Of a stretch of DNA of 64,000 nt, positions 3,737 to 53,550 are shown in pieces (position 1 is the first letter of the stretch; the number at the start of each line of letters is the position of its first letter). Origin of the DNA: Candidatus Poseidoniales archaeon (GTDB lineage Archaea; Thermoplasmatota; Poseidoniia; Poseidoniales; Poseidoniaceae); assembly GCA_003602475.1 (NCBI GenBank), contig QQSC01000015.1, forward strand, positions 46,313 to 110,312. Reading direction: 5' to 3'. The notes beneath the pieces were generated by a model that saw only the letters and a program-made list of their open reading frames with translations, searched no databases and was not told the DNA's origin. A program made the position numbers and the translations under genes.

Positions 3737-6700
3737 ATGAACATATGGCCTAAATGTTCCATCCAGTTCCTCACGCACCTTCAATTACCCTCGCCGGCGC
3801 TTTCCGTGGTGAACACCATGTCGCACCATCGGATTACGTCGGAACGGGTACCCTCGGGTCAAGGCATGCCACCTTGGCTCTCACAGGCGTTCCTATCCGT
3901 CGACGACCCCGGTCTATTGGTGGTACACCCGAACGAAGCACACCGTCAACAAACGCTTCAGCGCCTCCACGACATGGGGGGTCATCCGTCGCCACAATCC
4001 CACACCACGATGAATCAATTGCTCCGTTTACTCCACGTCGATTTCCGATTGCCGGTGATGTTGAACGACGATGTCACGAACTTCATGGGACTCCATCGGA
4101 AATGCGAGGAAGCTGCCGAAGATTTCGCCTTCCCTCTGTTGCACACCCCTGGCGCAGGAGCATGGTCCATTCAGAAAACCAAACGCCTCGTGACCTTGTA
4201 TGCCGAAGTGGCTCCGATGCGTTCCCCGTTTTCATGGTCCTCCAATCCAGGCGTTGATGTCTTGCATCAATTGATGCTATCGTTGGAACATGAAGAGGGA
4301 GGAACGCTGCCCGCATTGCTGCCACACCACGTGCTGAACGCTCTTGGAGAAACCGAGGAAACACCGTTCCACTTCTCCACCATCAACGGCGTCATTCTGC
4401 TTGACATGGCCCCCGATTTCTCTGAAATTGAACAGGACATCATGATGTCCTTGTCGGTTCACTGTCCGCTCCATCAATTGATTCATCCCGGTTCGTTTCG
4501 CCTGGGGTTCCACGGAGCCTACCTCGTGGACGAACCACCTTGCACCGACGATACCTTACCAACATGGGTACCAAATCACGAGGTGTGGGACGGTGACGGG
4601 GCTTCTTGGACAAGTGAGGTCGGTGAATCTCGCAACCGGACCATCACGCGGGTGGTTCTCGACGATCCCGAACACATGCTTGACGCAACGGCTCACATCG
4701 TTCATGACGTCCTTCAACACCAAGGTGGGCGTGTTTTGGTGCTCGATGGACAAGCCCATCAGCGGCAAAGGGTTTGGCAACAACGCTTTGCACAGCTCGG
4801 CATCTTCTCAGGCTCATCCAGCAAATCGGTTGAAGGTCAGCCGGTTCATTCCGCGTTGATCCACGCAGCAGGATTGGGGCTGGGAATGGACGCCTGGTCG
4901 CTTCCATCGCTTCGCACCCTCATCGCCTCCACGGCGCTCCCATGGCCATCGGACATGTTCCCTGCCTTGGAGCACCCCACTCAGCCGGAGTGGCGACCAT
5001 CTCCTCACCTTGACGTCTTGACCGACATGGCGCAGAACTTCCACGTGTTGGGTGGGCCAGGGGCGATTGGCAGGTGGCTGGGAGCCCTCTCTCAAGCCCA
5101 ACCTTCTCTCATGGAGCGTCGACCGGATGAACGACGACAATCCTTGGAAGAAACGCAGTGGTGGTTGGCATGCATCTTGCGATCTTGGACGCCCCTCCTT
5201 CTTCCGGAAGACCGGTTTTTGGCCGACCGAATCCAGCAAGGATGCAGTTCAGGTCAACCTTTGCCAGTGCCTCAAGCCCCGTCAAACGGTTTGGCATGGC
5301 TGAGTGAAACCATTCAGCGGCTGGACTTCGAACGTCTTGGTGGGTCAGACGCCCGTTTTAACCGCGGCATGGGCGACCTCCATGACGTCATGGAGGCCCT
5401 GGTACGAATCGCCGAATCCGAGGGCACCGAAGGGTTGGTCGGTACGATGTTTATCGAGGTGTTGCGCATGATCGGGCAATCGCTTCGAATCGCCACCGTT
5501 GAACCACAATCAACGGATGTGCTTGTCCTCACACCAGAAGACGCCCTTGGCTGTGAGGCCGACGTGGTTGTGCTGGCTGGACTGGATGTCCAATCTTGGC
5601 CGATGAAACACGCTGTGGTGCCGTGGTTGGACCCAGCAGCCCAGCTCGAATTGGGCATGTTTCACAACGATTTACTCGTTCGTCAGGGGCGGCATCATTT
5701 ACGCCATGCGCTCAACGCAGGACAGCATGTTTGGGTGTTCGACACATCACCCGTTGAAGATGCAGGTCCAAGTGCGCCTTTAGCAGAATGGCTGACGGAA
5801 GTTCGACGCTCAGGGGCCATGTTGTCCATGCGCAACCCTCCTGCTTACGTCCCCACGACCCACCACCAAGGTCAAGGCAACGATCGATGTTGGGACTGGC
5901 GTGTTCGAGAAGAAGGTCTCGGGGCTTGGTTGTGCCCGCTGCCAACCGTGCAAGAGGAGGACGAACAAGGGGCTTTCATCCGACGTACTGGACCGTTGCC
6001 TCGTAATCGAAGACAAGCCGCAGGGGTCAATCTGCAACGTCATCGAACCGGCTCCACCAAGGTACTCAACCCGACTTCCCTCGTCCACGCCCATGAGATG
6101 GCCTTGGTGAGCGACCGTCATCGCCGTCAACCTGCTTCAAAACGCCTCGCAGAGGGTGAACATTTGCCGTGGAGCGGGCGAAATCGATTGGTCAGTATGG
6201 ACAGCGTGAACTATTCCCTGCTGGATACCAAGCAACTGGAAACGCCGAGCGTGGGAGCGCCCGAGTGGCCCCACCTTGGGTTCCGTCCGGAACGACGGTT
6301 GGCCATCGGCGTCGACCCGAGGCCATTGCCGCCCTACGGTTCAGCACCGGAAGGGCTGGCCAAGCGGATGGGGCGTCTGTCAAACGGATTCACCCGTGGG
6401 CGTTGGTCGCCCAGCCGACTCGAAAAGGTTCTCAGGTGTCCCCGTCAGGCTTGGGCCGAGACTCGGCTCGAGATCAACGAAGACGAATCGCATCCATCCG
6501 AAGACGTGGACAACCGAACCCGTGGACAATTGGTGCACGATCTTTCCGTGGCTTTGATGGAAGCCCACGGCCTTGAAGTGAGCGAGGAGACCAATCAATC
6601 GCCGGTCCCCCTTCACGAGGGGCCTTTGGAGACGTTAACGATGGCTTGGGGGGAAACGTTGGCTTTTCTTTCGGTGCACGCCACTTGGTTGGGCCGGCCA

Positions 6701-7540
6701 AACGCTGTGTCGGTCCATCGCACAAAGGCTCTGTTGAACGCCACACCGGATGAGTGGGGCCTTCACATGTCGGGGGATCTCGATTTGCCCATTGGCGGGC
6801 AAGTGGGCGCCATGGTCACCGCCGATTGGAAGTTGAAGGGGGCCGCACCTCTGGTGGTTGAATGGCCCGCTCGCCAATCCGCAGGCTCGCCAATTCCCAT
6901 CGATGCTGTCCGTGAGGACGGCACAAAGGGTGGTTTCGACATGTTCGGATACGCTGACAGAATTGACGCGGTGGTGCTGAGCGATGAACAACAAGACGTG
7001 TTGATCGCCTCAGGTGTGCTGTCCGACGAACACCACGACACACCTTACCCGCTGGACGGGCAGCCACGAGGAGCGCAACGGTTGATCGTTGTTCGAGACT
7101 TGAAAACGGTGAACGGCCCGAAGGTCGATCGAGCAGGCCTACGGCATGCCCGTTGCGTGTTCGAGGATCTTCAACTCGCCCTCTACGCTCGGGCTTGGGA
7201 AGTTGCTCATCCGAACGATCGCGTGGTGGGCGTTGGGGCAACCGAAATCGGTGAACAAACCGTCCATTATGTGGAATTGGACGAAGCACTCGACGGCATT
7301 GCTTCAACCTTAATGCTGGGTGATGTGACCGAACATCTGCGGCATCATTTCCCTGTGACTGAAGCCGACGGAGAGGGTCAGACCGCGTTCAGGCGATGGA
7401 TGGCTGAACGCCTCAAAGTTGCCCAGCGAGCGGTGGACGCCATGGCCAACGGCCATGCAAACGCCACGCCGGGAAGGCACTGTTCCTATTGTTCGCTTCA
7501 GGATGCTTGCGACGTGGCTGAATTGGGAGGTGGCCGTTGA
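3737..7540 (+). CDS. AddB/RexB-like nuclease subunit of a two-component helicase–nuclease. It has a C-terminal RecB-family PD-(D/E)XK domain with a 4-Cys Fe–S motif.
   Basis: The C-terminus has GYADRIDAVV (a GxxDRID-like motif II), VVRDLKT (a D-x-K motif III), and the cysteine pattern RHARC…HCSYCSLQDAC (C…CxxCx5C, as in AddB/Cas4). There is no Walker A near the N-terminus, consistent with an inactive-helicase AddB/RexB-type subunit. Its stop overlaps the next gene's ATG (ATGA, 4 nt). Confidence 0.6.
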   Translation: MNIWPKCSIQFLTHLQLPSPALSVVNTMSHHRITSERVPSGQGMPPWLSQAFLSVDDPGLLVVHPNEAHRQQTLQRLHDMGGHPSPQSHTTMNQLLRLLHVDFRLPVMLNDDVTNFMGLHRKCEEAAEDFAFPLLHTPGAGAWSIQKTKRLVTLYAEVAPMRSPFSWSSNPGVDVLHQLMLSLEHEEGGTLPALLPHHVLNALGETEETPFHFSTINGVILLDMAPDFSEIEQDIMMSLSVHCPLHQLIHPGSFRLGFHGAYLVDEPPCTDDTLPTWVPNHEVWDGDGASWTSEVGESRNRTITRVVLDDPEHMLDATAHIVHDVLQHQGGRVLVLDGQAHQRQRVWQQRFAQLGIFSGSSSKSVEGQPVHSALIHAAGLGLGMDAWSLPSLRTLIASTALPWPSDMFPALEHPTQPEWRPSPHLDVLTDMAQNFHVLGGPGAIGRWLGALSQAQPSLMERRPDERRQSLEETQWWLACILRSWTPLLLPEDRFLADRIQQGCSSGQPLPVPQAPSNGLAWLSETIQRLDFERLGGSDARFNRGMGDLHDVMEALVRIAESEGTEGLVGTMFIEVLRMIGQSLRIATVEPQSTDVLVLTPEDALGCEADVVVLAGLDVQSWPMKHAVVPWLDPAAQLELGMFHNDLLVRQGRHHLRHALNAGQHVWVFDTSPVEDAGPSAPLAEWLTEVRRSGAMLSMRNPPAYVPTTHHQGQGNDRCWDWRVREEGLGAWLCPLPTVQEEDEQGAFIRRTGPLPRNRRQAAGVNLQRHRTGSTKVLNPTSLVHAHEMALVSDRHRRQPASKRLAEGEHLPWSGRNRLVSMDSVNYSLLDTKQLETPSVGAPEWPHLGFRPERRLAIGVDPRPLPPYGSAPEGLAKRMGRLSNGFTRGRWSPSRLEKVLRCPRQAWAETRLEINEDESHPSEDVDNRTRGQLVHDLSVALMEAHGLEVSEETNQSPVPLHEGPLETLTMAWGETLAFLSVHATWLGRPNAVSVHRTKALLNATPDEWGLHMSGDLDLPIGGQVGAMVTADWKLKGAAPLVVEWPARQSAGSPIPIDAVREDGTKGGFDMFGYADRIDAVVLSDEQQDVLIASGVLSDEHHDTPYPLDGQPRGAQRLIVVRDLKTVNGPKVDRAGLRHARCVFEDLQLALYARAWEVAHPNDRVVGVGATEIGEQTVHYVELDEALDGIASTLMLGDVTEHLRHHFPVTEADGEGQTAFRRWMAERLKVAQRAVDAMANGHANATPGRHCSYCSLQDACDVAELGGGR

Positions 7541-10500
7541 TGGTGCGATTCAACAACAGTCAACGGCTTGGCCTCGACCTCGATCGCCACATCGCCCTCG
7601 ACGCCGGTGCGGGAACAGGAAAAACCACGGTGATGGCCGAGCGGTACGTTCAGCATCTAATTGCCCACGACCAGCGGGCCACGCACGTCACGCCACCCGG
7701 GCCAAGAACCCCGTTATCGGGCCTCGGAGCGTTGCGCGCACCACAACGGGAACGAACCGGAATCGATGCGTGGCCGGGGCTTCTGCCTGCTGAAGTGGTG
7801 GCCATCACGTTCACGAAAAAGGCCGCCGCTGAACTCAAGGCTCGTATTCGAGTTCGACTGGCGCGTTCACGAGCTCACGCACCAACCGAAGACGACACAG
7901 AGGGCATGTTTGACCCGAGACTGCGCTCAAACGCCGACGTCGAAATGCTCTTGTCTTCGCTTGACGAAGCACCGATTTCCACCATCGATGCTTTCCTCCA
8001 TCGGCTGGTTCAGCCTTACATCGACAGAGTGGCGTTGTACCCCGCTCACGATATGGTGGCCGAGGCGCAAACCCCGCTCATGCTCAACGATGCGCTCCAT
8101 ACGGTTTGGCGGGTGAGATCGGTTGAAGACGCCCATGAAGCAGGGGTGTTGAATCATCATCAGGCGTTCATCGATGCCAGGAATCGTTTGGTTACGCTGC
8201 TGGGAGGCCAGCAACCTGCGGAGGTGGTGCTCAAGGGATTGATGGGCCGTTCGCTGTTTGTTGAACAGTCTCACCGGTCAATGATTCAACGGGCAGAGCG
8301 GCTTGGATTGCCTTGGAACGGGCGAGGGCCAGCCCCTGTTGCGCTGCTGTTGGATCTCATCGCTGAACCCGTCGCAGATGATGTTGTTCCATTCGTGGAG
8401 GAACTTCATGCGACCTTGGGCACATGGAAGGACCTGTTCTTGGCTCACCATGCCAATTGCGTTGCTCCAAGTGAGGCTGAGACACACCTCACCCGGTTCA
8501 ATCATCTTGTTCGCATGGCACAAGCGCCTTGTCCACATCAGCCGGGGGACGCCCTCAGGTGGGCGTGGTCGTTGATGATGGCCTTGGCTTCATCATCAGG
8601 ACTGGACCGTCGCCCAACCTCCTTTTTTCCGCGAAACAACCTGCCCAATGCAGATGAATGGCCTTCTGGGCTGCTGAGCAAATCAAACGTTAAGGGGATG
8701 AGTAAAGGTGAGAAAGACGACCTTTACGCTATTGCTCAAGGTTTCCAAGATGTGCTTCGGGATCGTCTGAACAGTCCTTTGGGGTCGCTGGTGCATTTGC
8801 TTTCACGCGCCGCCTTCTTCCTCAATCCTGGCGACGGACTGGACGGCATTCCACTCACCTCACCTCTGCGAGTGGAACCGTTGGCGCTTCCGCTGACCGA
8901 TCAGCCTCCGGCGCTGGGAACCTACATTGACGGAGCGTTGCAAACCGAGGTGCTGAGCGACCTCATCACGATTCATCGTGCATGCCACCAAATCCTCGCC
9001 CGACGCAAATCACTGGACGGTTTGCATGACTTTGACGATTTGCAGCGTTATGCTGCGGATGTGCTCCTCGCACGTTGCCCAGACGCATGCCGACATCTCT
9101 ATCCTCCAGAGGTGATCGACGTGCTTGACGGGCTCGGCGATGAGCCTTGGAGCGATGCCCACATTACTCGGGCGTTGACGTTGCTCAGCGACCAGGAGCC
9201 GCTCCGCGAGGATTTGCATCGTCGATTTTTGATCTTGGGGGAGATCCGTCGACAATACAGGGCCTTCATCATCGACGAGTACCAAGACACCAATCCTTCC
9301 CATTTCCGCTTGTTGGCTCGCTTGTGGGGCCGGCGTACTCGCCAGTCCGACGATCCGATGCGACCTCAAGGTGACTGGGATCCCACCGTTTGCATCGTTG
9401 GGGACATGAAGCAATCGATTTACCGGTTCAGACAGGCCGAAGTATCGGTCATGCGAAGAGCAGTCGCCATGATTCGCACCTCCAACCTCCTCGAAAGCGG
9501 TGACACAAGGCTGAATCATCTCCAGCAGGAAGGGCACGGTCGCGACCCACGTCCGGTTGGTGCTGGAGGGGAAGGGGGTTCGTTCAGCAACGATCATTCC
9601 ATCACCGTTTCTGCACCGCACAGTTTTGTTCGTTTGGACATTGAGGATGGAGAAACCACCCCTTCAATCGATGGAGAACGGTTGTTTCGGCGGCAAGAAG
9701 GTCATATTGACCTGACATCCAACCACAGAACCCGAGCAAACCTGATGAACACCATGAACGATGTGTTCGACGAGGTGTTCGACCCGGTGCATCATGAACT
9801 TCCCGGTGACTGGCATGCAGAATCCCAGCGTTTGAGGCCTGCGAGAGAAACGGAGGAAGGGGGTGTATTGGAATGGCTTTTGCCGGTTCAAGGTGATTTG
9901 GGAGATGTCGCTGCTGACCTTGATGCCCCCCTCAACACCTTCGAAGACCCGAATGCCTCCGCCGTTCATTTGGAACACGAACTTCTCGCCCAACGGTTGT
10001 CATCGTTGGTCAACGGCGACTCCACGCGGGTGTGGAACAGCACCGAGGCATCCTGGACCAACGTGCCAGAAACGGGTCCTTCTGTTCGCCCTTCAGATGT
10101 GATGATTCTTGTCAATTCCCGTCGGCATTTACCTGACCTGGTGCAACGTTTACGCGCTCGAGGTTTGCCTGTCATGGCCGACCGAATGGGGTTGCTTTTG
10201 ACCCAACCCGCCGTCAAACCGCTCCAAGGCTTGTTGACCCTCATGGCCCGGCCAACATCTCGACTTGCAGCGTTCACGTTGGCTCGTTCACCCATCGTGG
10301 GCATGGACGAAGACGCTACGACGGCTTGCCTGCAAGGCATGGGGCCCAACGAAAACGCCTGGCCTCATTTGATCGCCCACGCCCCGAATGCGGGCGTTCG
10401 TATGCTCTTACAACGCCTCCGACGTTTGGTCGAACGCGGCGCTGTGTACGAGGTTTTTGACGATGTGTTGGACCATTCGGACCTGCTGGTGGCCCACCCT

Positions 10501-12465
10501 GATGACGCTCAACGTCAGTTTGCTGAGGCGTGGTTGACCATGATCCGAGAGATCGGTGCTGAACACGGCCACGATGTCTCCACCATTCACGCTCAGATGA
10601 ACACCCTTCGGGAACTCGACAGGGCAGGACCAAAAGCCATCAGTCCCGTCTCGACCGACGCCGTCCAGATCATGACCATTCACGGTTCGAAAGGCCTGCA
10701 GGCTCCGGTGGTGGTGGTCACCGGATTGTTCACCGCAGGCATTGCCGACGCCTCCATTTCGGTTCAGGACAACGTGCTCGTTACGCCTCAAGTGGTGGCC
10801 GGTCGCGTTCAGCCATGGCTGACACAAGAACGGCCGCTGGACGGCTTGTGGGCCTTTGCAACACAGATGAACAAAGCCCAAGACAAAGCTGAACTGCGAA
10901 GAAAGTTCTACGTCGCATTAACCCGAGTCAAAGACCGATTGATTCTCACCGGGTCCCCGGGGGACAGGACCAATTGGAACGCAACATCAGGCGATTTGGC
11001 GGTCAACATCAAGCCGGACGCGAGAACGATGGGCCACATGCTGTTCCTCGGTTTGCGAAGAGCGGCATGGGTGGCCGAGGCAACCGACGGGTTTTGGTTG
11101 CAGGGTGAAGAGGTTGGATGCGAGGTATTGCCACCGTACCAACCACGTCGCGACCCGGTTCCCTTCAATCCCGCTTTGATGCTCACCGATTCACCGTTGG
11201 GCGATGAAGGGGTCCAAGGATTGCGTGTCTACCATCATCCGAATTGCTTTGAGCACCCATCTCCGCCCTCGCCACAACAAACCATTGCAACGCTGGCGAA
11301 TGTTCTTCGCACCGTCGAAGCAGCGGTTCCAGAACCTGCCTTGGCTCTGACCTCAACGTCCGTTACCCTCAAAGGCGCCGCTCACCATCTTGATACCACG
11401 TCAACTTGTCCTCGGCGGTATTGGTTGGAGCACATCAAGGGCTGGTCGACCGAACCGTTTTGGCTTCCTGGAATGCCTCGACCTCCCAAACAACAGAAAG
11501 GATGGCCTGAGGCAACAACTTTCGGATTAATGATGCACAGGCTGTTGGAAATCGGGCTCCACAACCCTCGTCAACTCCATCCCAACTCCGCTCATCTTTC
11601 CAGATCTTGGATGCACGAAGGCCACGATCGCCTGACCAACAACTCGGCCATGGGTGAAGTGATGCATGAGTTTGGATTTGGATTCGAACAAGCGACGGGA
11701 ACGGATGAAGCTGTCTGGCGGGCCAGGTTGCATCATTTGGCCACCCTTGTCCAACGCGGGCGCCTTGGACAATACCTTGGAGGCGCCACCGTTGAGGGGT
11801 GGACCGTTGAGGCGTTGCGCACCGAATTGCCGTTTTTCCATCGTCATCCGATGACCATGGACCATCGAAATGAGGGCCCGTTCACCGCCCCATCCCACGT
11901 GACTTCTGTGGTGATGGAATTCAGCGGACGAGCAGATTTGGTGCTGGCACTTTCCAACGGAAAAGGTCCGGGAGCCCTCCAAGTGGTCGATCTAAAAACG
12001 AAAGGCTGCCTTTCCGGCTTCAACGAATCCGATCCAAGCAAAGGGCACCGCTTGCAAGCCATCGCCCCCGAGGTGACCGAACTCAGCCCTCTCAACGAAG
12101 CAGAAGCAGAGATGCTGGCTGAACACCGCCTTCAACTGACGCTGTACTCCATGGCCTTGGAGGCCATGGAACTTCAACGGCCACCTGAACAACGACGCAC
12201 CGTCTTGCCTCCCGCCATTTTGGTGGGTGCCAACGGCCGGATGGTGGCTTTGAGTGAAGACGAGTACGACCAGGCTCGCATCACGCTGGAAAACCATCTT
12301 CATTGGCGGGCCTTGATGCATTTAGAAGAGGACCCCACCGGCCCGGAACGGTTGCCACTTGAGGCCGATGCCTGCGGCATGTGCCCTTACCACCGGGGGC
12401 ATGTGCGGCGGTGTGGTCCAAAAGGCGAACCGTTGGGTTTGGGTCCGTTCACTTCTGACCCATGA
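7537..12465 (+). CDS. AddA/RexA-like UvrD-family (SF1A) helicase fused to a C-terminal RecB-type nuclease with a Cas4/AddB-like Fe–S cysteine cluster.
   Basis: Motif I is LDAGAGTGKTTV. Motif Ia is VAITFTKKAAAELK. Motif II is FIIDEYQDTN. Motif III is GDMKQSIYRFRQA. Motif IV is LTSNHRTRANLMN. Motifs V/VI are IMTIHGSKGLQAP and YVALTRVKDRLILTG. The nuclease region has TSTCPRRYWLEH, GRADLVLA, VVDLKTKG and the terminal CGMCPYHRGHVRRC. It is translationally coupled to the upstream gene. Confidence 0.8.
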   Translation: MMVRFNNSQRLGLDLDRHIALDAGAGTGKTTVMAERYVQHLIAHDQRATHVTPPGPRTPLSGLGALRAPQRERTGIDAWPGLLPAEVVAITFTKKAAAELKARIRVRLARSRAHAPTEDDTEGMFDPRLRSNADVEMLLSSLDEAPISTIDAFLHRLVQPYIDRVALYPAHDMVAEAQTPLMLNDALHTVWRVRSVEDAHEAGVLNHHQAFIDARNRLVTLLGGQQPAEVVLKGLMGRSLFVEQSHRSMIQRAERLGLPWNGRGPAPVALLLDLIAEPVADDVVPFVEELHATLGTWKDLFLAHHANCVAPSEAETHLTRFNHLVRMAQAPCPHQPGDALRWAWSLMMALASSSGLDRRPTSFFPRNNLPNADEWPSGLLSKSNVKGMSKGEKDDLYAIAQGFQDVLRDRLNSPLGSLVHLLSRAAFFLNPGDGLDGIPLTSPLRVEPLALPLTDQPPALGTYIDGALQTEVLSDLITIHRACHQILARRKSLDGLHDFDDLQRYAADVLLARCPDACRHLYPPEVIDVLDGLGDEPWSDAHITRALTLLSDQEPLREDLHRRFLILGEIRRQYRAFIIDEYQDTNPSHFRLLARLWGRRTRQSDDPMRPQGDWDPTVCIVGDMKQSIYRFRQAEVSVMRRAVAMIRTSNLLESGDTRLNHLQQEGHGRDPRPVGAGGEGGSFSNDHSITVSAPHSFVRLDIEDGETTPSIDGERLFRRQEGHIDLTSNHRTRANLMNTMNDVFDEVFDPVHHELPGDWHAESQRLRPARETEEGGVLEWLLPVQGDLGDVAADLDAPLNTFEDPNASAVHLEHELLAQRLSSLVNGDSTRVWNSTEASWTNVPETGPSVRPSDVMILVNSRRHLPDLVQRLRARGLPVMADRMGLLLTQPAVKPLQGLLTLMARPTSRLAAFTLARSPIVGMDEDATTACLQGMGPNENAWPHLIAHAPNAGVRMLLQRLRRLVERGAVYEVFDDVLDHSDLLVAHPDDAQRQFAEAWLTMIREIGAEHGHDVSTIHAQMNTLRELDRAGPKAISPVSTDAVQIMTIHGSKGLQAPVVVVTGLFTAGIADASISVQDNVLVTPQVVAGRVQPWLTQERPLDGLWAFATQMNKAQDKAELRRKFYVALTRVKDRLILTGSPGDRTNWNATSGDLAVNIKPDARTMGHMLFLGLRRAAWVAEATDGFWLQGEEVGCEVLPPYQPRRDPVPFNPALMLTDSPLGDEGVQGLRVYHHPNCFEHPSPPSPQQTIATLANVLRTVEAAVPEPALALTSTSVTLKGAAHHLDTTSTCPRRYWLEHIKGWSTEPFWLPGMPRPPKQQKGWPEATTFGLMMHRLLEIGLHNPRQLHPNSAHLSRSWMHEGHDRLTNNSAMGEVMHEFGFGFEQATGTDEAVWRARLHHLATLVQRGRLGQYLGGATVEGWTVEALRTELPFFHRHPMTMDHRNEGPFTAPSHVTSVVMEFSGRADLVLALSNGKGPGALQVVDLKTKGCLSGFNESDPSKGHRLQAIAPEVTELSPLNEAEAEMLAEHRLQLTLYSMALEAMELQRPPEQRRTVLPPAILVGANGRMVALSEDEYDQARITLENHLHWRALMHLEEDPTGPERLPLEADACGMCPYHRGHVRRCGPKGEPLGLGPFTSDP

Positions 12466-13102
12466 GCACCAACGTGCCGGACCAACCGTCCTTTTCCCCG
12501 GTCTGAAACGCTTCGACCTTGCGCAAGCCGGCCGCCTGGAAACCTTGCCGCCATTCGTCAATGGTGTGCATGGCCATGTGAACGTTGAGCGATGAAGACC
12601 AATCGTGACTGGCTTCGTTTTCAGCGTAGTGATCGATACCGATGACGATCCAACCATCTTCTTTGAGCCAATTGTTTCTCACCGATTTAAGAAACGACAT
12701 GGGGTCTTTGAGGTAATAGAGAAATTCCATGCTGTGCACGAGGTCCACCGGTTCATCGGGGGTCCATTCCGGTAGCATGGCGAGGGTGTAGGACCCCTCA
12801 GGGTCCACCGCTCTGGCCTTTTCAATCATGGTGCCGGCCCCGTCAACACCTGATGCATTTGCACAATTTGGATGAGCGCTGATTTTGCGAACAACCCAAC
12901 CGTTTCCACACCCCACATCGATGGCGGTGAATCCTTCATTCATGCCGGGTAGTACGGCTTCCAGCATGGTCATCACGCTGTTGCTGTGCCCTTTTTCCAT
13001 GCCTACATCTCGCCCGGAGGCGGCCCAGTCGCTGAACAAGTCCGTGGCTTTACGTTGGCTCATGGGCGTGGCTAACCTGCTCTCTTCCATCAAGATGTTC
13101 AT
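12449..13102 (-). CDS. Class I SAM-dependent methyltransferase.
   Basis: Motif I is IDVGCGNGW. It has a Rossmann-like fold pattern and a size of about 200 aa. Confidence 0.7.
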   Translation of the reverse strand: MNILMEESRLATPMSQRKATDLFSDWAASGRDVGMEKGHSNSVMTMLEAVLPGMNEGFTAIDVGCGNGWVVRKISAHPNCANASGVDGAGTMIEKARAVDPEGSYTLAMLPEWTPDEPVDLVHSMEFLYYLKDPMSFLKSVRNNWLKEDGWIVIGIDHYAENEASHDWSSSLNVHMAMHTIDEWRQGFQAAGLRKVEAFQTGEKDGWSGTLVLMGQK

Positions 13103-18488: not shown

Positions 18489-20471
18489 ATGATGGAAACG
18501 ATTCTCATTCTTGCAGCCTTTTTCATTGGCGCCGTTTACTTGATGTCCCGTTCGGTGGAAACCGGACTTGGCTCGGTTGGGGGTGCACTCCGCCAAATCG
18601 GCCTTTTCATCCTTCAAAAGAACCCTCCGGGCCTGGTTGACATCTTTGATGACCGCGACGGCAGCGGGTCACGGACATGGATGAACTTCGGTATGCTCTG
18701 GTTGGTTTTGGCCGGTTTGTTGGGCTTCCTTGATGGATGGCACAACTACGATCCAACCGCTTTGGATTCCCTCGCCAGCGTTGGCTGGTCGTACGACGAC
18801 GGTTCAGCGCTTCGAGAAGCCACCACCAACGTCCTTCAGTTCGCCCTTCTGTTTGGGCTTGTTGGAGCCTCCCTTGTCGCCGTTTCCCGAAACGGCAACG
18901 GCCGCTTGGCCAGTGAGGCCAACGCATCGCTGATCGCCGTTCTGTTGTCCGCCGTTTTGGTCGCTCAATACGTGTTGCCCTTCATCCTCGGGTTCGCCGA
19001 CGTCGACACGTCTGTTGCTCCATTCAGCATCGTTTTGTTCAGTTTGGAATCCATGGTCCTCGGGCTGCTGTTTGTTCCCGTACTGATCAACATCTTGCTC
19101 ACCGTATCGACACGAGAAAACGAAGACCTCTCCACGTCCTCATGGTTCCTCATCATGGGCGTTTTCGTCCACATCATGGCCATGCTAACCGTGTTCTTTG
19201 GCGACCTCGCTGGAAGCGAACAGGTTGAATGGTTTGGCAGGCGAGTCGGCTCGGGCTGGGTTCCGCTCGCCCTGATGTTCGCTGTGGGATACCATGTGGT
19301 CCCCATGGCTGCACAAGTCCCTATTTGGTCGGGAACTCTTCGTTCAGCGAGCATGTTCTTCCTCTTCATGACCGTTCCCGCTTTGTCCCTCACCGGTATC
19401 GAGGCAACAGGGTTCATGACCAATCTCATGGCCATCATGGTCACGTTGGGTCTCCTGCCTATTTTGGCTGCTTCTGTCAACATCGTGATGACGGCCATCA
19501 AGGGATTGGCTTCCGTGGCTGAAAACCCAGGGGCTATCGCTGGAATGTTTGCGTTTCTCTTGCTGCCATTCTACGCCGTTGGAACCTACTTCACCGGCAT
19601 GGACGCCTTTGTTGGTGCTGGTGAACTCGGGGCCATGGCGCACACCGTGAACACGGGACTTCTCTTCACGGTTGGTGGACTGTTGGTCCTGTCCGGCGTG
19701 TTTTCCAACTACCCCCTCGCTGTTGGTAAGCCTCTTTCGTCGGGCAACAGCACCTTGGCCGCATGGTTCGTGGCCATTGGCGGCGTCAGTTCAACCATCG
19801 TTTATCTCATGGGGAACTTCACCAAGAACGCCGTGGAACAAAGCGGCGCTGAGGACGTTGTTGCGGCCGACGGCGGCTTCTACCTCACTGGAGCAGCTCT
19901 GTTTTACCTCCTTGGTATTGGCGCCATCATGGCCAGCATGGCCGTTATTCGAACCGGAATTTCCCCAGCGAAGAAAATCATGGACACCTCTGTGGCTCAG
20001 GCCGTTTCCACCTACACCCTAACCGCTGGCTCTGCGACCACCATTCGAAATTTGATCGGTCGTGGCGTTGGCGTTGACACCGAATTGGTCATCAGCGAAA
20101 CAACCACCAAGAAAGGCGGTTCAACCGTGATTGCGGTTGATGCATCCCTTCACAACGACGAAGTGAAAGAATTCCCTTCCAAAGCCTCCGACGCCCTGGT
20201 TGAATTTGTTCAATACCTCGTGAATACCGGTCAATCCGTCATGGATGTGTTCATGGCCATGGACATGGACGGATCAGGCCGTGTAGACAGCCAAGAATTC
20301 CTGACGGCTTTGGTCAAAACCGACATCAAAGAATTGACCACCATGGACGCTGAAGCGTTGGTGGCCTCAATGGACCTTGATGGAGACGGGGAACTTAACC
20401 TTCCAGAACTCGACATCGCCATCGCTCAAATCAAGCGCGACCACAACCTCACAGCACAAGAGGAAGAGTGA
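18489..20471 (+). CDS. Polytopic membrane protein (about 14 TM) with a C-terminal pair of canonical EF-hand Ca2+-binding loops.
   Basis: There are many long hydrophobic helices. The C-terminus has DMDGSGRVDSQEF and DLDGDGELNLPEL, which are canonical DxDxDG 12-residue EF-hand loops. Confidence 0.7.
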   Translation: MMETILILAAFFIGAVYLMSRSVETGLGSVGGALRQIGLFILQKNPPGLVDIFDDRDGSGSRTWMNFGMLWLVLAGLLGFLDGWHNYDPTALDSLASVGWSYDDGSALREATTNVLQFALLFGLVGASLVAVSRNGNGRLASEANASLIAVLLSAVLVAQYVLPFILGFADVDTSVAPFSIVLFSLESMVLGLLFVPVLINILLTVSTRENEDLSTSSWFLIMGVFVHIMAMLTVFFGDLAGSEQVEWFGRRVGSGWVPLALMFAVGYHVVPMAAQVPIWSGTLRSASMFFLFMTVPALSLTGIEATGFMTNLMAIMVTLGLLPILAASVNIVMTAIKGLASVAENPGAIAGMFAFLLLPFYAVGTYFTGMDAFVGAGELGAMAHTVNTGLLFTVGGLLVLSGVFSNYPLAVGKPLSSGNSTLAAWFVAIGGVSSTIVYLMGNFTKNAVEQSGAEDVVAADGGFYLTGAALFYLLGIGAIMASMAVIRTGISPAKKIMDTSVAQAVSTYTLTAGSATTIRNLIGRGVGVDTELVISETTTKKGGSTVIAVDASLHNDEVKEFPSKASDALVEFVQYLVNTGQSVMDVFMAMDMDGSGRVDSQEFLTALVKTDIKELTTMDAEALVASMDLDGDGELNLPELDIAIAQIKRDHNLTAQEEE

Positions 20472-25192: not shown

Positions 25193-28100
25193 TCACAGCA
25201 AGTCATCAAGGAAGGAGGTGTCAACCTTCGGTTGTGATGGGGCCTGGGGCTCGTCGACAAGACCGTCGAGCAGATTCATGTCCACACGGGGTTGGACGAC
25301 GGGTTGAGGCGCTTGGTAAGCGGTTTGCCCGTAGTCGGGACTCTGAATCTGTTCTGCCGCGGCGTAAATGTCGCTGGCCTGTTGAGCCGAGACGCCTTGA
25401 GGCGGACTGGGCGCAGGCATTCCTTGCGGTGCTTCCCACGACGGGGTCTCGATGCCCCAGGTGGCTTCTTGGAGTTCCCAATTCTTGTTTCGCTTTTGGC
25501 CACCGCTTCGGCTTCTGGCCACGAGAACGAGCAACAGCAGAACGACGATCACCATGCCAGCCGCCACGAGGTTCGGGCCAGTAAGCAACGATTCAAGTTG
25601 CAAACCGTCCCCGTCCTCGGTTGATTCAGTACCTGCTTCATCACCGTTGACCGGTAGAAGAAGCAAGGATTCAACGGTGGTTTTGCTCACGGTTTCATCA
25701 AACGCCACAACGGCGAGATGCCATCCCGTGGTGTTGTCAAGTTCCTCATACAGTTCCGAGGTGATGAGATAACTGTTGGACGCTCGAACCTCACCAACCA
25801 TGGTAGCGATGCCGGTGTCCTCAAACGCCTCATCATGGATGTAGACTTGGTAGCCTCTGACACGTGCGTCGGTGGAATGGTTCCATTCGACCAAGATGCT
25901 CGTTTCTTCAAACCACGATACTCCAACATTGGCAATGTCGGGCAAGTAGACTCCGGGGTCGGTGATGCCTTCGTTTGTGGCTTCGGCTGAGACCATCGTT
26001 AGCATGTCGGTGAACGAGTTTGAAGAAGAGTCCACAACGACCACAGCGGCCCAGATTTGCTGGCCCGGAACCACAGGAGTATCTCCGGCCACGAGGTCAA
26101 TCACCACGGGCAAAGCAGGGTTTCGACCGAGGGTTGCCACGGGTGTCAACAACGCCGTCACCTCACCGTTGAAGTCGTAGGTGGCCGCATACACTTCGTA
26201 CGCAGCAACATCTCCGGCCTCGGACAGATCAAAGTCGAGCAACAACGCTTGACCGTTGTCGTTGGGGCGATCAACCAAACGCACCTCAGTCAACCGTTCC
26301 GGAGCTGTGTTGTCGTTGAGGTTGTCCACGGGTGTGACGGTGGCTTGCGTAAGATCCGTCAGGTGAACGTTGCCCCGCAGGTCGTGAACGGTTACGGCGG
26401 TGTAAAGCTCAATCCCTGGCTGAATCAATCCTGGTGCTCCGTCTGTCAAACCACCACCGTTGGTGTACAAAGCCGTGGACAGCGTCAGTTGGATGGGGTT
26501 TGTTTCCTCGTCGATCCATTGCTTGTTGAAGCTGAAGCAACCGCAGGCGTTGGCGTCGGTGCCCGTCAACGCATAAAGCGCTGAGAGGTCGGTAACCGGT
26601 TGGTCGGCAACCCATACGGTGTACGAGGCGAAATCGTCGACTTGGCTGGGTTCCCAGACCACATCGATGGCGGTTCCATCGTCTTCTGGATGGTCAAACG
26701 CCAGCAGGGTGGTGATGCGATTGGGTGTTGAGCCTTGACCAATGACGTTTTGCATTGGTGTTGCGAGGACCAAGGTAACGTCGTCGATGTTGCCGTTGAG
26801 CCAAGCGTCGTAAGCCACCACACCAACGGCGTAACTGCGACCGTCGGTCAACGGAATTCCATCAAGTCTGTTCAGAACGATTGATGTTGTCAGGCAATCG
26901 TTGATGATCGCCGCCTGGGAAAAGGATTCCACGCTGCTCGGGTCGCTCAACGACAGGCTGGCGTCGTTTTGCATGGCTTCGTCCCACGGAGACATGAACA
27001 CGGTGTAGAAGGCGCAATCTTCTGCGTCGCTTGCGTTCCACTCAACGTTGATTCTGCCACCTTCGTCCTCCGGAACATCGAGCGCTCGAGTGCCTTCAAT
27101 GGGGTCAGGGGCTTGGTTGTCGTTGAGTTCCCCGGTTGGAACGACGGGGCCGACGACGGTGATGTCCGAGAGGTTCTCTTGTCCCGACTGGTCGACGCAA
27201 GTCCACCCGATCCAAACCGGCACACCTGGGGTGAGGGCGATGGTGCTCAAGTTGCCTTGATTGGGGAGGTAGGTTGAAGCGGGGGTGAGGCCGAAGGCAT
27301 CGGTGAACGGTGTTGTGGCCACATAGACGTTGGTGGACGCCAAATCAAGCGCTGTGCACCTTGCCCATTCCAAGCTCAGGTCCCCGTCGTTGTCGTCCCC
27401 TTCAGCGGGCAATGCTTGAGCCCAAGCGGGCGGGCGAGGAACTTCGTTTGATGAGGTGGCTGGTCCGACCGAGGGCGAGATGTCGCCCCATCGGCCGTCG
27501 TTGTATTCAACCACGACAACCGCGTGGTAATCCACACCGTCCTGTAGGGGAACACCGTTGGCGGTTTGAACCTCGGTTGAGAGGCGACTGTGGAGCGAAA
27601 CCGCCTTGTCAGGGGTCCGTTGCATCAGCATCGCTTCTGTGGGTGCGGTTTCCCAAGGACCTTCGTTCACAAACACGACATAGCGTGCGAAATCTTCGTC
27701 GTGCACAAGGGACCACGAAGCCATCAAGGCACCGCCGCCGTCATCGGGTCGGTCGGTGAGGTCTTGCATCACCACTGGAGTATCGGTTCGGACGTAGTCG
27801 TAGGTGATTCTCGCTTCCATTGATCCGTTGGAAGGCGACAACAACCGCAGGCTCACGTGACGAGTGTTGTTGTAGAGAGGTGCCACATCAACAGCGCTTT
27901 GGAGGTTCATTCCCAGGGCGGGGTCGTTGCTGAGGTCGAGGGTGATGTCGTACAGCAGCCGTTCGGATTGGGTCCAAACAGCAGCTCCATTCACCGGAGA
28001 GGTGAACACGAGTGGTACGTTTTGGAACAACACGCCATGCGCACCAGCCGTCCCGAGTTCAGCATTGAGGGCGTACGGGTCCGAGGGGTCAACAAGCGTG

Positions 28101-31100
28101 ATGTTGACACCTGGATGGGTCATGTCGGTGATGTTGAGGCCTCCTCCGTTGCCAAGAGTTCGAACCGTTAGCGGGTGAGCCCGTCGCATGGTGTAGTCTT
28201 CAACAGGCGAGTATTGACCGCTGTTTTCCCATCCGAACAAACCCTCCTCGGTGGTAATCCAAAGATGATTTGCACCAAGCGTCCCGTCGAGAATTTCGCC
28301 CGGTCGGAAGGTGCCGAGAACGGCGTGGGCTCCAGTTCGGGCCTCGAGAAGAATGGCGCTTTGCAGCGAGGTCATGGCGAGCAACTGCTCCCCATCGCTG
28401 ACCATGCCGGTCACGCTGGGTTGAGTTTGCATAGCGGCGTTTCCATCTTCGAATTCATCGCTTGAACTGTTCCAATGGGTGAGTGGGCCCGAACCCGTCG
28501 CCACGTGAACGCCCCACCAGTCGCTGGCAAGGGCGGTGACCGTGTTTGAGGGAAGTTGGTCGAAGCGATGGGTTGAATCCACGGCGTTGCTGCTCAACGA
28601 GGCGATGCTTACCCCCGGTCGTTCCGCACCACGGCCGTCGTGAGCCAGGACCAGCATGGGGTTGATGCCACCAGGGTTGAGCACCGTCAAACCCCATGTT
28701 GAATCTCCGAGCAATCCATCGTTTGAGTCGATGGTCGTTGCGATGCCGGTTGTTTCATCCCAAGCCACCAAACCGAGCGGTGTGGCCATGTATACCGTGG
28801 TGCCCACGGCCAAAATATCCTCCACAATGCTGGTGGGCAATCCGTTGGCGGCTGTGATTGAATCCATCCAATCGGCTTGAGCGTAATCCCATCGGCCGAC
28901 ACCGCCGTCGGTGGCGATGTAGAGAATGCTGCTGGTTTCTGTGAATCCGTTGATCACGCTGGAAGGTAGACCGCCAACGAGGCGTCCACTTGTGAACTGC
29001 TGACTGCTGACGTCAAAGCGTTGCACGCCCGGCGGGCTTCCACCGTCACCAGAAAGACCGATGATGAGTTCGGTTCCGCTCACCGCCATGGTGTCCATTT
29101 TGTTGTGCAATGCGCCGTTTCGCATGCTCACGGCGCCGGTGGTGGTGTCGAGAACCATCAACCCGCTGGGGTTGGTGGTGATGTAGAGGTCGGTCCCGTC
29201 AAGATGCATGCTGCCAGCCACCGAGTTGGCCGTGAGTGTCCATCCGTAGTCCCACTCCACGCTTCCGTTGGGCAGGAAGGTTCCTTGCAACAAGCCGGCA
29301 GAAGTGCCGAAGTTGCCCGTTTGCCCGCCGCCAGTAAGAACGCCGGTGGCCGCCCAAATGTGCGTGGCGTTTGATGCCATGGCGGTTACTTGACCGCTCA
29401 CAAGGCCGGGGAGATCAACCACCTTTTGGATGCCGAGAGAGGAGAGGGTCGAGACATGACTGTAGCCAGAAGTTCCACCTGCTTGACCGATCATCCAGCC
29501 CGTGTTGGATCCCATCCATTGCAACGATGTGACGGATGAACCCGCCCCGGAAACGGCGGCTTGGCCGCTTGATGCCCCGTTCGAGGCGAGCAGAGAATAC
29601 CCGCCTCCGATGGCGCTTCCTACGGACCCAATACCGTGTCCGACGATCAATTGACCGTTGGCATGGGCCAAACCGTCGTACCATATTCGGTCGGCAGGGA
29701 GGTTATGGCTGGATTGGGTCAAACTTGTGAGCCATGTTGAGGTCGTGTAGCTGTATTTTGAGATGGGTTGGTTGTCTTGGTAGTACCCAACGTAGAGGGT
29801 TTCTGAAGTGTCGCAAGCCACCGAGGCGGGCTGATTGCCATCGAGGTCAAACCGTTCAAAAGCGGCGTCCATGGTTTGATTCTGGACGTCCAGCCGAGCA
29901 ATGCCGTCGGGGTACATGGCAATGTTGAGCAAACCACCGCACTCGACCATCGCAATGGGGTAGCCGTTGGGGACATTGGCATCCGAATTGGCTTCGTAGG
30001 TCGTCCAGGCCCCTGAACCGTCAAGATGGCTGACAATGCCTTCGGCAAAGCCGCCCCACGATTGCAATCGAGCCCCACCAACGATCAAGTCGCTTCCGTC
30101 GGTCCAAAGGTCGAGGAACTGGTCGCCTGCATTGCTGGGCATGTTCACGCCTTCAGACCATGCCGTAGCCCATTGGTTTGAGGTTTCATTGTAGCGTAGG
30201 ATTTCGTCGTTGGCCGCCATCAGCGTGAGGCCTTCGAATTCAACAATGCCACGGATTGGTAAATCAAAACCGTCCCATGAGCCGGTAAGCGTGCCGTTTG
30301 GAGCGTACAGGTCAAGCCGGAGTTCGCCCCAAGCCACCCACGTGTTGCCGTTGCTGCTGGTGTAGGCCGTGACCCTGTCAATGGAGCCGGTGGGCAAAAG
30401 AGCAGAATCAAACGCATTCGATGAGGTGTTCCACACCGCAATACCGCCCGAGCCGTCAGCGTTCCACCACTGGCCGGATGAAAGTGAAATGAACAGATGA
30501 TCGCCCCTGAGGTGCATGCTGTAGACGTCGCCGTTGTTTTCGCTGAGTTCAGTCCCGATGTCAAGAGCACCAGGGTTCGTGAAATTAACCACATCCAATC
30601 GCCCTACTTCGTCACCGTTTGTGCTTGAATGGTAGTACATGATGCCGTTGTGAATGGTCATTTGGTAGGCGGAGCCTGAAGCATCGTAGAGGTTGCTGTT
30701 CGTTTCGATGTCGTAGATTTCAGCGCCCGTCGTGGTGTTGATGAGTTGAAATCCGTCGTTGCCGCCGACCCACAAATGCCCGGGGCGCACGTCCGCTACC
30801 AAGCCGGTAATGTCGTCGTTTCCACCGTCCAACTGACCGTTGGCTTCTGAAAACGATGACAACCATTGGCCAGATGTGAGGTTGTAGCGCAAGACACCCA
30901 ATCCATCGGTGCCAATGTAGGCAATGTCGTCAATGATTTCCACCACGGCGTTCCCTGTCTGCGAGGCTTCGCCCCAGTTGAAATCGTGCTGGAACGTGGA
31001 TTTGTCGATCACACCAACGCCGGTGGTCGTCCCACCAAAGACGTAATTTGAGTTCAAACCAACCGAATACGTGGCCCAGTTTGGCATGCCGTCGAAGACG

Positions 31101-40841: not shown

Positions 40842-41327
40842 TCAAGCAAGGTGAGGGGCTGCTCCGAGGGCAGCATGAAGCACACCGCGGGTTTCATCGT
40901 GGGTAACAAATTCCAAGGCTTGATCCCACGGCAGCCACAAGTACCCGCGATGTTCTTTGGAGAGTTGGACCGTTATCTCATCGGTTTCACCAAGGTACCA
41001 ATGGACTTCTTTGTCCCTTCGTTTGCCCTTGTGGTGGTAGCTGTACGACGTTCGGTATGCAAACCCGCCGACGAATTTGAGGTCAACAATTCCGGTCTCC
41101 TCATGAAGTTCACGTCGAACCGTGGCCATGTGATCCGCATCGCTGTCCTCCACGTGGCCTTTGGGCAGGTCCCAATGCCCTTGAGGGTACTGAAGAAGCA
41201 GCACCGTGCCGCAATTGACAAGCACAACACCGCATGAGGTCTCCATGCGCCTCCCTGCTCGGTCTCCTTGATGGTCATGACGGCTCGAGGCGAACGTTGA
41301 TGGCCGTTCACGGAGAGCAAAGAGCAT
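40842..41327 (-). CDS. Nudix hydrolase.
   Basis: The Nudix box is GHVEDSDADHMATVRRELHEETGI (Gx5Ex7REUxEExGU). Confidence 0.8.
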   Translation of the reverse strand: MLFALRERPSTFASSRHDHQGDRAGRRMETSCGVVLVNCGTVLLLQYPQGHWDLPKGHVEDSDADHMATVRRELHEETGIVDLKFVGGFAYRTSYSYHHKGKRRDKEVHWYLGETDEITVQLSKEHRGYLWLPWDQALEFVTHDETRGVLHAALGAAPHLA

Positions 41328-42312
41328 GGCGGTTCAAGCCCTGCAAGCTGGCGAAGTCCCCTTTTATTCGCTTATTTTAGCCGATGCTGACCTTGACGGG
41401 CTAATGGGAGCCGCGCTCCTCAAGGCTTTCCGGCCGGAGGCTTCGGTTCGGTTTTCCCATGCCGCCGCCGTTCGAGGCGGACTCGATGACGGGTACATCA
41501 ACGCCCAGACCGCCATGGTTGACCTTCCGTTCCATCCCAATTGTGGATGGTACATCGACCACCATGCCACCAACCGACCAACGGCCGAAGAATCCACAGC
41601 CTTCACCCAGAAAGGTGGTGTGGTGGATTGGGATGCGGCTCCTTCTGCTGCGCGTGTGGTCCACGATCTGCTGAAGAACGTGACACCTGTTGACCATTTG
41701 ACGTCGCTGATGCCTTGGGTGGACGCCCTTGATTCGGGAGGAATTTCACTCACCGATTTTCGAGAGGACGGTCCGGCATTGCAACTTTCGAGATGCTGTT
41801 CGCTGCGCCACGAGCCCATGATGCATCGAATCGTTGACCTGTTGGCGAATGGAGCGGATTTGGACACCGTTTTGAGGGATGAGGAAGTTGGGCCGCTGGT
41901 GCAGAATCTACGTGCTGAGCGGCAACACGCAGAAGAGATGGTGGCCAAGTACACCACCATCCACAACCGACTTGCAGTTTGCAGGTTGGAGGACACCGGG
42001 CTACGAATCAACGGCTATTTGGTCACGGCATGGGCGGGTGACCGCGCCGATGCATGCTGTGTGGTCCACGGTTACGCCGATGGCCGATTGGACGACCGAG
42101 AACGCCCTCCCATCGGCGCCAGTTTCTATGCCAATTCGTTTTTGCCAGGGGCGCAAGGGATGTACGACCTGTCTCGCATGGCCACCTCTCTTGATCCGAC
42201 CGGGGGGGGGCATCGAAACGCTTGCGGTTGCCGTGTCCAGCCACCCGGCCTGGAAGCCAACCTGAGCCACTGGTTGTCGATGTGGGACGCCAGAGACGAC
42301 GTCCTTGTTTGA
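41326..42312 (+). CDS. DHH/DHHA1 phosphoesterase, NrnA-like nanoRNase/pAp phosphatase.
   Basis: It has LILADADLDG (DHH motif I), YIDHHATN (the DHH motif) and GGGHRNACG (the DHHA1 GGGH motif). Confidence 0.7.
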   Translation: MAVQALQAGEVPFYSLILADADLDGLMGAALLKAFRPEASVRFSHAAAVRGGLDDGYINAQTAMVDLPFHPNCGWYIDHHATNRPTAEESTAFTQKGGVVDWDAAPSAARVVHDLLKNVTPVDHLTSLMPWVDALDSGGISLTDFREDGPALQLSRCCSLRHEPMMHRIVDLLANGADLDTVLRDEEVGPLVQNLRAERQHAEEMVAKYTTIHNRLAVCRLEDTGLRINGYLVTAWAGDRADACCVVHGYADGRLDDRERPPIGASFYANSFLPGAQGMYDLSRMATSLDPTGGGHRNACGCRVQPPGLEANLSHWLSMWDARDDVLV

Positions 42313-45545: not shown

Positions 45546-45635
45546 GGACCTATGTGTGGCTACAACCCTCCATCTTCGTGCATCGGTGGGTTGAAAGCGG
45601 CAGGATGGAGGCGAATGGTAAGGAGGCGTGTGTGC

Positions 45636-53464: not shown

Positions 53465-53550
53465 GGGGTTAAGTTCGTTCAACGGAATTTGAATGTGTTG
53501 CCGTGCGAGGGGCGTCGCGTGGATGTTTCTGCAGCGGATTTGGGTTGCCG

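Follow-up and report, generated by a model that had tools for sequence, protein, structure and literature searches.

A probable AddAB-type helicase-nuclease gene pair carried by Poseidoniales archaea

Nucleases of the RecBCD and AddAB class have been stated to be "not present in archaea" (bioRxiv 10.64898/2026.05.08.723854). A 64,000-nucleotide (nt) stretch of DNA from a Candidatus Poseidoniales archaeon (assembly GCA_003602475.1, contig QQSC01000015.1, positions 46,313-110,312, forward strand), the whole of which we call the window, raises the question of how far that statement holds. It contains two giant coupled genes, here named P1 and P2, which an earlier note made from the sequence alone had read as a bacterial-type AddAB helicase-nuclease acquired horizontally. 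As cited in PMC2887965, movement of addAB into archaea had been put forward in 2009; our literature search brought up no paper that connects Poseidoniales with AddAB or with Mre11/Rad50. Our analysis makes it likely that P1 and P2 are the subunits of an AddAB-type heterodimeric helicase-nuclease and form a core chromosomal pair of the Poseidoniales (Marine Group II). The pair is a divergent AddAB variant whose architecture is already known, and both proteins are present in public databases under generic names, P1 being annotated as hypothetical. Their function is most likely the ATP-driven resection of double-strand DNA ends, which would yield 3' tails for the recombinase RadA.

The two genes are very long + strand open reading frames (ORFs), at 3737-7540 (1267 residues, P1) and 7537-12465 (1642 residues, P2). 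Frames of such length in DNA of 56% GC are far beyond chance, and each protein has hundreds of full-length homologues; here the earlier note had read the sequence correctly. The features of the pair are as follows.

3737-7540, + strand: P1, predicted AddB-like subunit (ORF, homologue alignment, AlphaFold/Foldseek match to AddB chain B)
3818-6316, + strand: predicted N-terminal inactivated UvrD-like helicase fold of P1 (fold match to the helicase-like domains of AddB, AdnA and RecC)
6389-7537, + strand: C-terminal RecB-family PD-(D/E)XK nuclease of P1 (Pfam PDDEXK_1; D1074, D1121/K1123 at 7097-7105, Q1146/Y1150)
7526-7542, + strand: translational-coupling junction (GGAGGTG 7526-7532, P1 stop TGA 7538-7540, P2 start ATG 7540-7542)
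7540-12465, + strand: P2, AddA-like subunit (Pfam, NCBIfam, PDB sequence match, Foldseek)
7540-10974, + strand: SF1A motor of P2 (Walker A 7603-7626, DEYQD 9274-9288, motif III GDMKQSIYRFRQA 9400-9438)
11377-12462, + strand: C-terminal RecB-family nuclease of P2 (Pfam PDDEXK_1; D1466, D1484/K1486, Q1532/Y1536)

Read directly, the letters at the junction are GGAGGTGGCCGTTGATGGTG. The stop codon of P1 and the start codon of P2 share one nucleotide (TGATG), and the Shine-Dalgarno-like GGAGGTG lies 7 nt upstream. The tight coupling described in the earlier note is therefore retained, but not its ATGA overlap at 7537-7540, the true overlap being the single nucleotide at 7540. The TTG at 7537 is the mechanical start of the P2 ORF and would make a 4-nt TTGA overlap; homologues begin with M-[IV]-x-F-N at ATG 7540, and on this alignment we place the start there, giving a protein of 1641 residues. 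Alignment with homologues also places the likely true start of P1 at ATG 3818 (residue M28), which has GGTGA just upstream and would give about 1240 residues. The co-oriented arrangement, with the B gene upstream of the A gene, is kept in all relatives examined, where P1 and P2 are never apart, and the pairing persists at only 28-37% identity. Gene overlaps of 4-8 nt recur in a distant relative (L010) and in two outgroup pairs (L011 and L013), all three described below. At its 3' end P2 runs for 17 nt (12449-12465) into the 3' end of a convergent gene for a class I S-adenosylmethionine (SAM) methyltransferase (12449-13102, - strand), and this overlap is kept at all Poseidonia loci.

P2 contains a UvrD-helicase domain split in two stretches, a UvrD_C domain and a PDDEXK_1 nuclease, as detected by Pfam. 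Its SF1A motif set is complete from I to VI (Walker A GAGTGKT, Ia, IIDEYQDT, GDMKQSIYRFRQA, LTSNHRT, TIHGSKGLQAPVV and YVALTRVKDRL) and is invariant across 28 and across 60 homologues. The nuclease residues listed above are kept in 28 of 28 homologues, and a four-cysteine 1+3 pattern, formed by C1290 (11407-11409) and C1612/C1615/C1625 (12373-12414), is found in 24-28 of the 28. Between motifs Ia and II lies a helical expansion of ~300 residues (~170-480), modelled with a predicted local distance difference test score (pLDDT) of 80-95 and retained even in a relative that is 30% identical (L009); a further insert of ~80 residues follows motif III.

By NCBIfam models, PDB sequences and Foldseek alike, P2 is nearer AddA than RecB, UvrD, PcrA or AdnB. 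The NCBIfam ranking places addA_Gpos (149 bits) above addA_alphas, then recB and then PcrA/Rep/UvrD. The best PDB sequence match is AddA of Bacillus subtilis (3u44_A, 5.9e-18), followed by AdnB. When an AlphaFold model of residues 1-1200 (mean pLDDT 72) was compared with known structures by Foldseek, the top four matches were to AddA chain A (5.8e-21 to 6e-17, template modelling (TM) score ~0.43), with RecB next (~1e-11) and then UvrD.

The sequence of P1 is less readily recognised. Pfam detects only the C-terminal PDDEXK_1 nuclease (E 3e-17), whose residues listed above are invariant in 37 of 37 homologues. Cysteines of the AddB/Cas4-type 1+3 'iron-staple' pattern, C901 (6437-6439) and C1249/C1252/C1258 (7481-7510), are present in 35-37 of these 37, a pattern that makes P1 a putative 4Fe-4S protein. 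Neither single-sequence nor family-profile searches found an AddB among PDB sequences, the one match being a marginal one to Cas4 around C901, and a P1 profile run against a set of 5.8 billion proteins returned solely the same 92 Poseidoniales clusters, with no AddB.

The fold of P1 is more informative. An AlphaFold model of residues 68-1267, built with 93 sequences, has a pLDDT of 86.2, and at the head of its Foldseek matches stands chain B (AddB) of five B. subtilis AddAB structures (E 4e-20 to 2e-18). These alignments run over the full length (~1150 target residues) with TM 0.48-0.53 and 12% identity, and the matches that follow are AdnA and then RecC. The ~850 N-terminal residues are modelled with a fold like the inactivated helicase domains of these three proteins. 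No Walker A was found in P1, the equivalent position reading V-[VI]-[HY]-P-N-E (VVHPNE here) in all 37 homologues; there is no aligned GK[ST] anywhere in the protein in this set, and no helicase motifs were detected. Invariant Trp, His, Arg and Gly residues are numerous in the N-terminal region, which suggests a constrained DNA-contacting surface compatible with sequence recognition, and we infer that this region forms a single-stranded DNA channel or possibly a sequence-recognition domain. As judged from its predicted fold P1 is AddB-like, and the model settles an identity that the sequence models miss. The matches of P1 to AddB and of P2 to AddA are independent, reciprocal best matches.

Much of what the earlier note read from the two proteins stands on this evidence: the full SF1A motif set and C-terminal RecB-type nuclease of P2, the lack of a Walker A in P1 together with its RecB-type nuclease end, and the AddB-AddA gene order and logic, which for both subunits has the support of sequence as well as of fold. 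The comparison of structure predictions with B. subtilis AddAB that it had proposed gave the best fold match for each subunit. Its expectation of profile matches held for PDDEXK_1, UvrD-helicase and UvrD_C but not for recognition of AddB, where the weak addB_alphas match was the only one.

Several observations weigh against an AddAB assignment. The AddB sequence models TIGR02773 and TIGR02786 do not recognise P1. Its match to addB_alphas (NCBIfam) is weak, covering residues 570-666 at E 0.0018 and 16 bits against a cut-off of 486, and outside the nuclease its sequence likeness to AddB is confined to one short segment of the 2A domain. The sequence evidence for P1 as an AddB thus rests on this 16-bit match and on a weak profile similarity (hhalign), extending from the 2A domain to the nuclease, between P1 and the partner protein of a bacterial AddA-like gene (L013, below). 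P2 too falls below the curated AddA cut-offs, with 149 against 708 bits for TIGR02785 and 125 against 861 for TIGR02784; these scores indicate a distant member of the superfamily rather than an equivalog of either characterised AddA subfamily. Confidence in the P2 model is low at the conserved 1A core motifs, and the model was used solely to rank fold matches. As to the missing Walker A of P1, the motif is not known to occur in every AddB subfamily, so its absence argues against the B. subtilis subtype and not against the AddAB class. In B. subtilis AddB the motif serves to stabilise the Chi complex (PMC3321194), and the lack of it in P1 counts against the assignment. Nor have Chi sites been reported in archaea (bioRxiv 10.64898/2026.05.08.723854).

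Set beside characterised enzymes, the pair most closely resembles B. subtilis AddAB (PDB 3U44, 3U4Q, 4CEH, 4CEI, 4CEJ), which heads the structural matches of both subunits and, for P2, the PDB sequence matches as well. The two systems share the B-then-A gene order and translational coupling, an A subunit that joins a complete SF1A UvrD-like motor to a C-terminal RecB-family nuclease, and a B subunit with a UvrD-like fold devoid of helicase motifs, a RecB-family nuclease and the 1+3 cysteine 'iron staple'. They differ in that identity in the structural alignments is only 12% (P1) and 17-18% (P2), and in that P2 is ~400 residues longer than B. subtilis AddA, owing mainly to the Ia-II helical expansion, the insert that follows motif III and extra length at the C-terminal end. 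The four-cysteine pattern is present in P2 too, whereas the iron-sulphur (Fe-S) cluster of the B. subtilis enzyme is in AddB only (PMC3378879), and the host recombinase here is RadA, whereas B. subtilis AddAB works with RecA.

Mycobacterial AdnAB likewise consists of two subunits with UvrD-like and RecB-nuclease parts and has an Fe-S cluster in the AddB-equivalent subunit; AdnA is the second-best structural match for P1 and AdnB is a sequence match for P2. The Walker A and B motifs, both absent from P1, are retained in AdnA, which binds nucleotide (PMC3321194, PMC13000450). An AdnAB identity was rejected because P1 lacks a Walker A and because AdnA ranks below AddB as a fold match. Escherichia coli RecBCD offers a similar correspondence, with P2 resembling RecB and the helicase-like region of P1 resembling RecC, so that one 3'→5' motor-nuclease is joined to a dead-helicase scanning subunit; in lacking a Walker A, and in that one respect, P1 is more RecC-like than is B. 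subtilis AddB. P1, with a full set of nuclease catalytic residues and an Fe-S motif, departs from RecC, in which the nuclease-like domain is inactive, and no RecD-like or third helicase gene was found in or beside the P1-P2 operon. These two points led us to reject a RecBCD identity; RecB scores also fall below the AddA scores.

The limits of the family were drawn by searching 1.84 billion representative proteins with P2 residues 1-1200. Collinear full-length matches (1500-1716 residues) extend down to ~395 bits, beneath which lie fragments from this family and then other full-length proteins (1100-1360 residues) with scores of at most 142 bits. All eight of the outgroup proteins scanned score best against the AddA models of NCBIfam, each below the cut-offs. 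Named outgroup relatives are haloarchaeal (Natrarchaeobaculum, Halogeometricum, Haloferax) and bacterial (Planctomycetota, Calditrichota). In a neighbour-joining tree of 100 AddA-like representatives the 25 members of the Poseidoniales type form a monophyletic clade that has a long branch and lacks any specific sister, and since the distances (1.7-2.1) are saturated no donor can be named. Of the placement sought by the phylogeny that the earlier note proposed, this tree gives a coherent family and no source for it.

Among the nearest of these outsiders, which include haloarchaeal plasmid proteins, are non-canonical bacterial AddA-like proteins, represented by P0279 of Planctomycetota and by the L013 protein, which score 106-118 bits (E 2.7e-30 to 1.3e-25) and have among the smallest tree distances to P2. 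They are ~30-35% identical to P2 over partial stretches, lack the ~300-residue expansion and are 1100-1360 residues long compared with 1500-1716. As these bacterial pairs are uncharacterised, the likeness is one between two unstudied groups. At L013 (bacterial contig GCA_974773005.1, 3061-11047) a gene for a 1315-residue PDDEXK partner overlaps that for a 1348-residue AddA-like protein, and ruvA adjoins. The C-terminal CxxC...C of P2 occurs in 20 of 72 outgroup proteins, several of the closest included, and is absent from the haloarchaeal ones; at least two of the AddA-like proteins that have it (P0279 and P0287) are bacterial. The subset points to an AddAB subtype, so far unstudied, in which both nucleases have motifs of Fe-S type, and from the cysteine patterns such a subtype appears to exist in bacteria also.

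AddAB-like pairs are not unique to Poseidoniales. Haloarchaeal pairs share with P1-P2 an archaeal host, an overlapping operon in which a nuclease partner precedes a UvrD-nuclease, and AddA as the best NCBIfam family. Their AddA-like proteins have ~1240-1300 residues, lack the C-terminal cysteine cluster and form a separate small clade, and the pair is often on megaplasmids (72 plasmid records). In Natrarchaeobaculum sulfurireducens (L011; CP027033, 4689-10888) a 771-residue PD-(D/E)XK protein, which matches P1 in the nuclease domain only, is encoded in overlap with the AddA-like gene, and the pair adjoins an SNF2/PLD protein and an MmeI-type methylase-nuclease. This context looks accessory or defence-like, in contrast to the core, syntenic setting of P1-P2. 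With such pairs common on haloarchaeal plasmids and a transfer into archaea already suggested in 2009, the view in the earlier note that AddAB-class machines are bacterial was too strong.

The setting of the pair within its own lineage was established from homologues and from a scan of GTDB genomes with one protein as query, which recovered eight close Poseidonia loci. Named homologues of both proteins come from metagenome-assembled genomes (MAGs) of Candidatus Poseidoniales and Poseidoniaceae, with full-length identities among Poseidoniales of 44-98% for P2 and 29-99% for P1; the 98%-identical locus is from a North Sea Poseidoniales MAG. Seven other Poseidonia species keep the block collinear, in the order three upstream ORFs, P1, P2, methyltransferase, hydrolases, phosphatidylserine decarboxylase, radical-SAM protein and EF-hand protein, with identities of 60-63% for P2, 46-48% for P1 and 39-90% for the neighbours. 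The distant relative L010 lies on a 3.0-Mb contig of 70.8% GC (ENA ERZ26167216, ctg495766), where P1 is 28% and P2 32-37% identical and the genes overlap by 4 nt; phosphatidylserine decarboxylase, radical-SAM protein and an Obg-like GTPase (50-64% identity) are downstream genes common to it and the window. The pair and part of the downstream gene order are thus kept there despite a 15-point difference in GC.

Composition agrees with this picture. The GC content of the two genes is 0.58 and 0.57, compared with 0.56±0.02 in the rest of the window, and GC at third codon positions and codon usage are equal too. The pair diverges at least as fast as its neighbours. The flanks consist of lipid, metabolic and housekeeping genes, and Pfam scans of the neighbouring ORFs found no defence or mobile genes adjoining the pair. 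Conserved synteny, widespread Poseidoniales homologues and matching composition together establish that the pair is long-resident and vertically inherited; this is not the pattern of a recent island or a defence hotspot. The genes were probably acquired, or retained, in ancient times, no later than the base of the Poseidoniales lineage, and an ancient interdomain transfer from a bacterial source is plausible. The earlier note had itself named, as a finding that would refute it, close homologues widespread and vertically inherited in the same archaeal lineage, and this is what we find; the horizontal acquisition that it favoured is not supported as a recent or detectable event, and the GC and codon comparison with the flanks that it proposed leaves the pair indistinguishable.

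Three other explanations were weighed. The one that survives best, though we consider it unlikely, is a dedicated anti-virus or anti-plasmid defence system, in which a UvrD-nuclease fusion and a partner nuclease would destroy foreign DNA in the manner of UvrD-Cas4 or of Gabija GajB. RecBCD and AddAB degrade phage DNA, and many PADLOC profiles for the GajB UvrD helicase match P2, the best at 5e-21; these matches are generic to the UvrD fold, however, and the only PADLOC match of P1 is a weak one to Cas4. UvrD-Cas4-like fusions of bacteria and mesophilic archaea do occur in restriction-modification and defence contexts (PMC5704561), and the neighbours of the L011 pair and the frequent plasmid location of the haloarchaeal pairs count on the same side, but no GajA/OLD nuclease, restriction-modification, Dcm/Vsr or other defence gene adjoins P1-P2. 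The flanks are instead collinear housekeeping genes across species and in the distant genome, not a variable 'island', and the pair is spread across Poseidoniales rather than patchy. The partner protein P1, moreover, has the predicted fold of AddB and not that of a stand-alone nuclease. A Gabija or UvrD-Cas4 module was accordingly rejected for its generic GajB matches and lack of defence neighbours, and the novel defence-type system that the earlier note had offered as its alternative has no contextual support. Roles in repair and in defence are not mutually exclusive, RecBCD and AddAB also destroying linear foreign DNA.

Very unlikely is a recently acquired bacterial addAB island in an archaeal chromosome. 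The AddAB architecture is a typically bacterial one, Marine Group II genomes are noted for the bacterial-like genes that they hold in number, and the nearest relatives outside the family include the bacterial AddA-like proteins of Planctomycetota, Calditrichota and the bacterium with ruvA adjoining. Against these stand the absence of any compositional or codon-usage deviation, the synteny in seven congeneric species and in the distant relative of 71% GC, the wide gap in score between the family (~395 bits) and the next full-length proteins, and the monophyly of the family, which is long-branched and lacks a specific sister group. Synteny and matching composition led us to reject a recent horizontal transfer, which is effectively refuted as to its recency. 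Least credible of the three is a UvrD/PcrA-type repair helicase paralogue lying beside an unrelated PD-(D/E)XK nuclease gene with no AddAB-like complex, for although sequence recognises P1, annotated as hypothetical, only as a PD-(D/E)XK family protein, such an unrelated neighbour is contradicted by the AddB/AdnA/RecC-like inactivated helicase fold of its N-terminal ~850 residues, while P2 has a nuclease domain of its own and ranks with AddA/RecB rather than UvrD/PcrA, and the genes are translationally coupled and never separated in the relatives examined.

An AddAB-type enzyme formed by P1 and P2 would work by a mechanism that we draw from homology to B. subtilis AddAB (PMC3321194, PMC3378879). 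The P1-P2 heterodimer would bind a double-strand DNA end, and P2, as the sole active motor, would translocate 3'→5' on the 3'-ended strand and unwind the duplex. The P2 nuclease would cut the 3' strand, and the displaced 5' strand would be fed to the nuclease of P1. The 3' strand would pass through a channel formed by the motor-dead, helicase-like N-terminal part of P1, and this part may read a Chi-like regulatory sequence and so switch the enzyme to the production of 3' tails. RadA, the archaeal recombinase, whose gene lies in this window, would then bind the resulting 3' tail, and the enzyme would also be expected to degrade linear foreign DNA, like RecBCD and AddAB. It is possible, although we regard it as doubtful, that this machine is the main route of double-strand break resection in Poseidoniales, feeding a eukaryote-like RadA under the control of a Chi-like genomic sequence that the dead-helicase domain of P1 would read, and that HerA-NurA may have given way to it.

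The rest of the window fits an archaeal chromosome. RadA (Rad51 and HHH_5 domains) is encoded at 53554-54681 and FtsZ at 52337-53725, both on the - strand, and a tRNA-Met with A1:U72 is present. These are the archaeal markers named in the earlier note, except for TFB, which was not found in Pfam scans of all window ORFs of at least 200 residues. The names of homologues, RadA, features of the tRNA and, in a related locus, PTH2 are the basis of the archaeal assignment. RadA and FtsZ are adjacent (52334-54681, - strand) and their longest ORFs overlap by ~170 nt, from which the start of FtsZ is probably downstream of GTG 53725.

Other genes of the window lie outside the argument. A 328-residue ORF at 41326-42312 (+ strand) has DHH-phosphoesterase-like motifs (DADLDG ... 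DHH) with no Pfam match at E ≤ 1e-4; by these motifs it may be a divergent RecJ/NrnA-like protein and could bear on DNA-end processing. The 660-residue protein encoded at 18489-20471 (+ strand) has a C-terminal EF-hand pair, unusual as a calcium-binding protein for an archaeon, and is syntenic across Poseidonia at 57-65% identity. Three very large ORFs are without any Pfam match: 25193-33484 (- strand, 2763 residues), 45552-49082 (+ strand, 1176 residues) and 58028-61300 (+ strand, 1090 residues).

The pair carries a warning for annotation, since sequence models miss the AddB-like partner, which only its fold reveals. Poseidoniales are among the most abundant archaea of the surface ocean, and in this ecologically dominant order a complete AddAB-type enzyme, with its catalytic residues intact, is conserved and syntenic wherever examined and occurs with RadA. 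If the enzyme is active, it would become testable how a bacterial-type resection motor hands DNA to a Rad51-type recombinase, whether archaeal genomes carry Chi-like polarity signals, and whether HerA-NurA and Mre11-Rad50 are truly universal in archaeal recombination. Were Chi-like control and delivery of 3' tails to RadA to prove true, they would give Archaea their first Chi system and their first functional partnership of AddAB with RadA.

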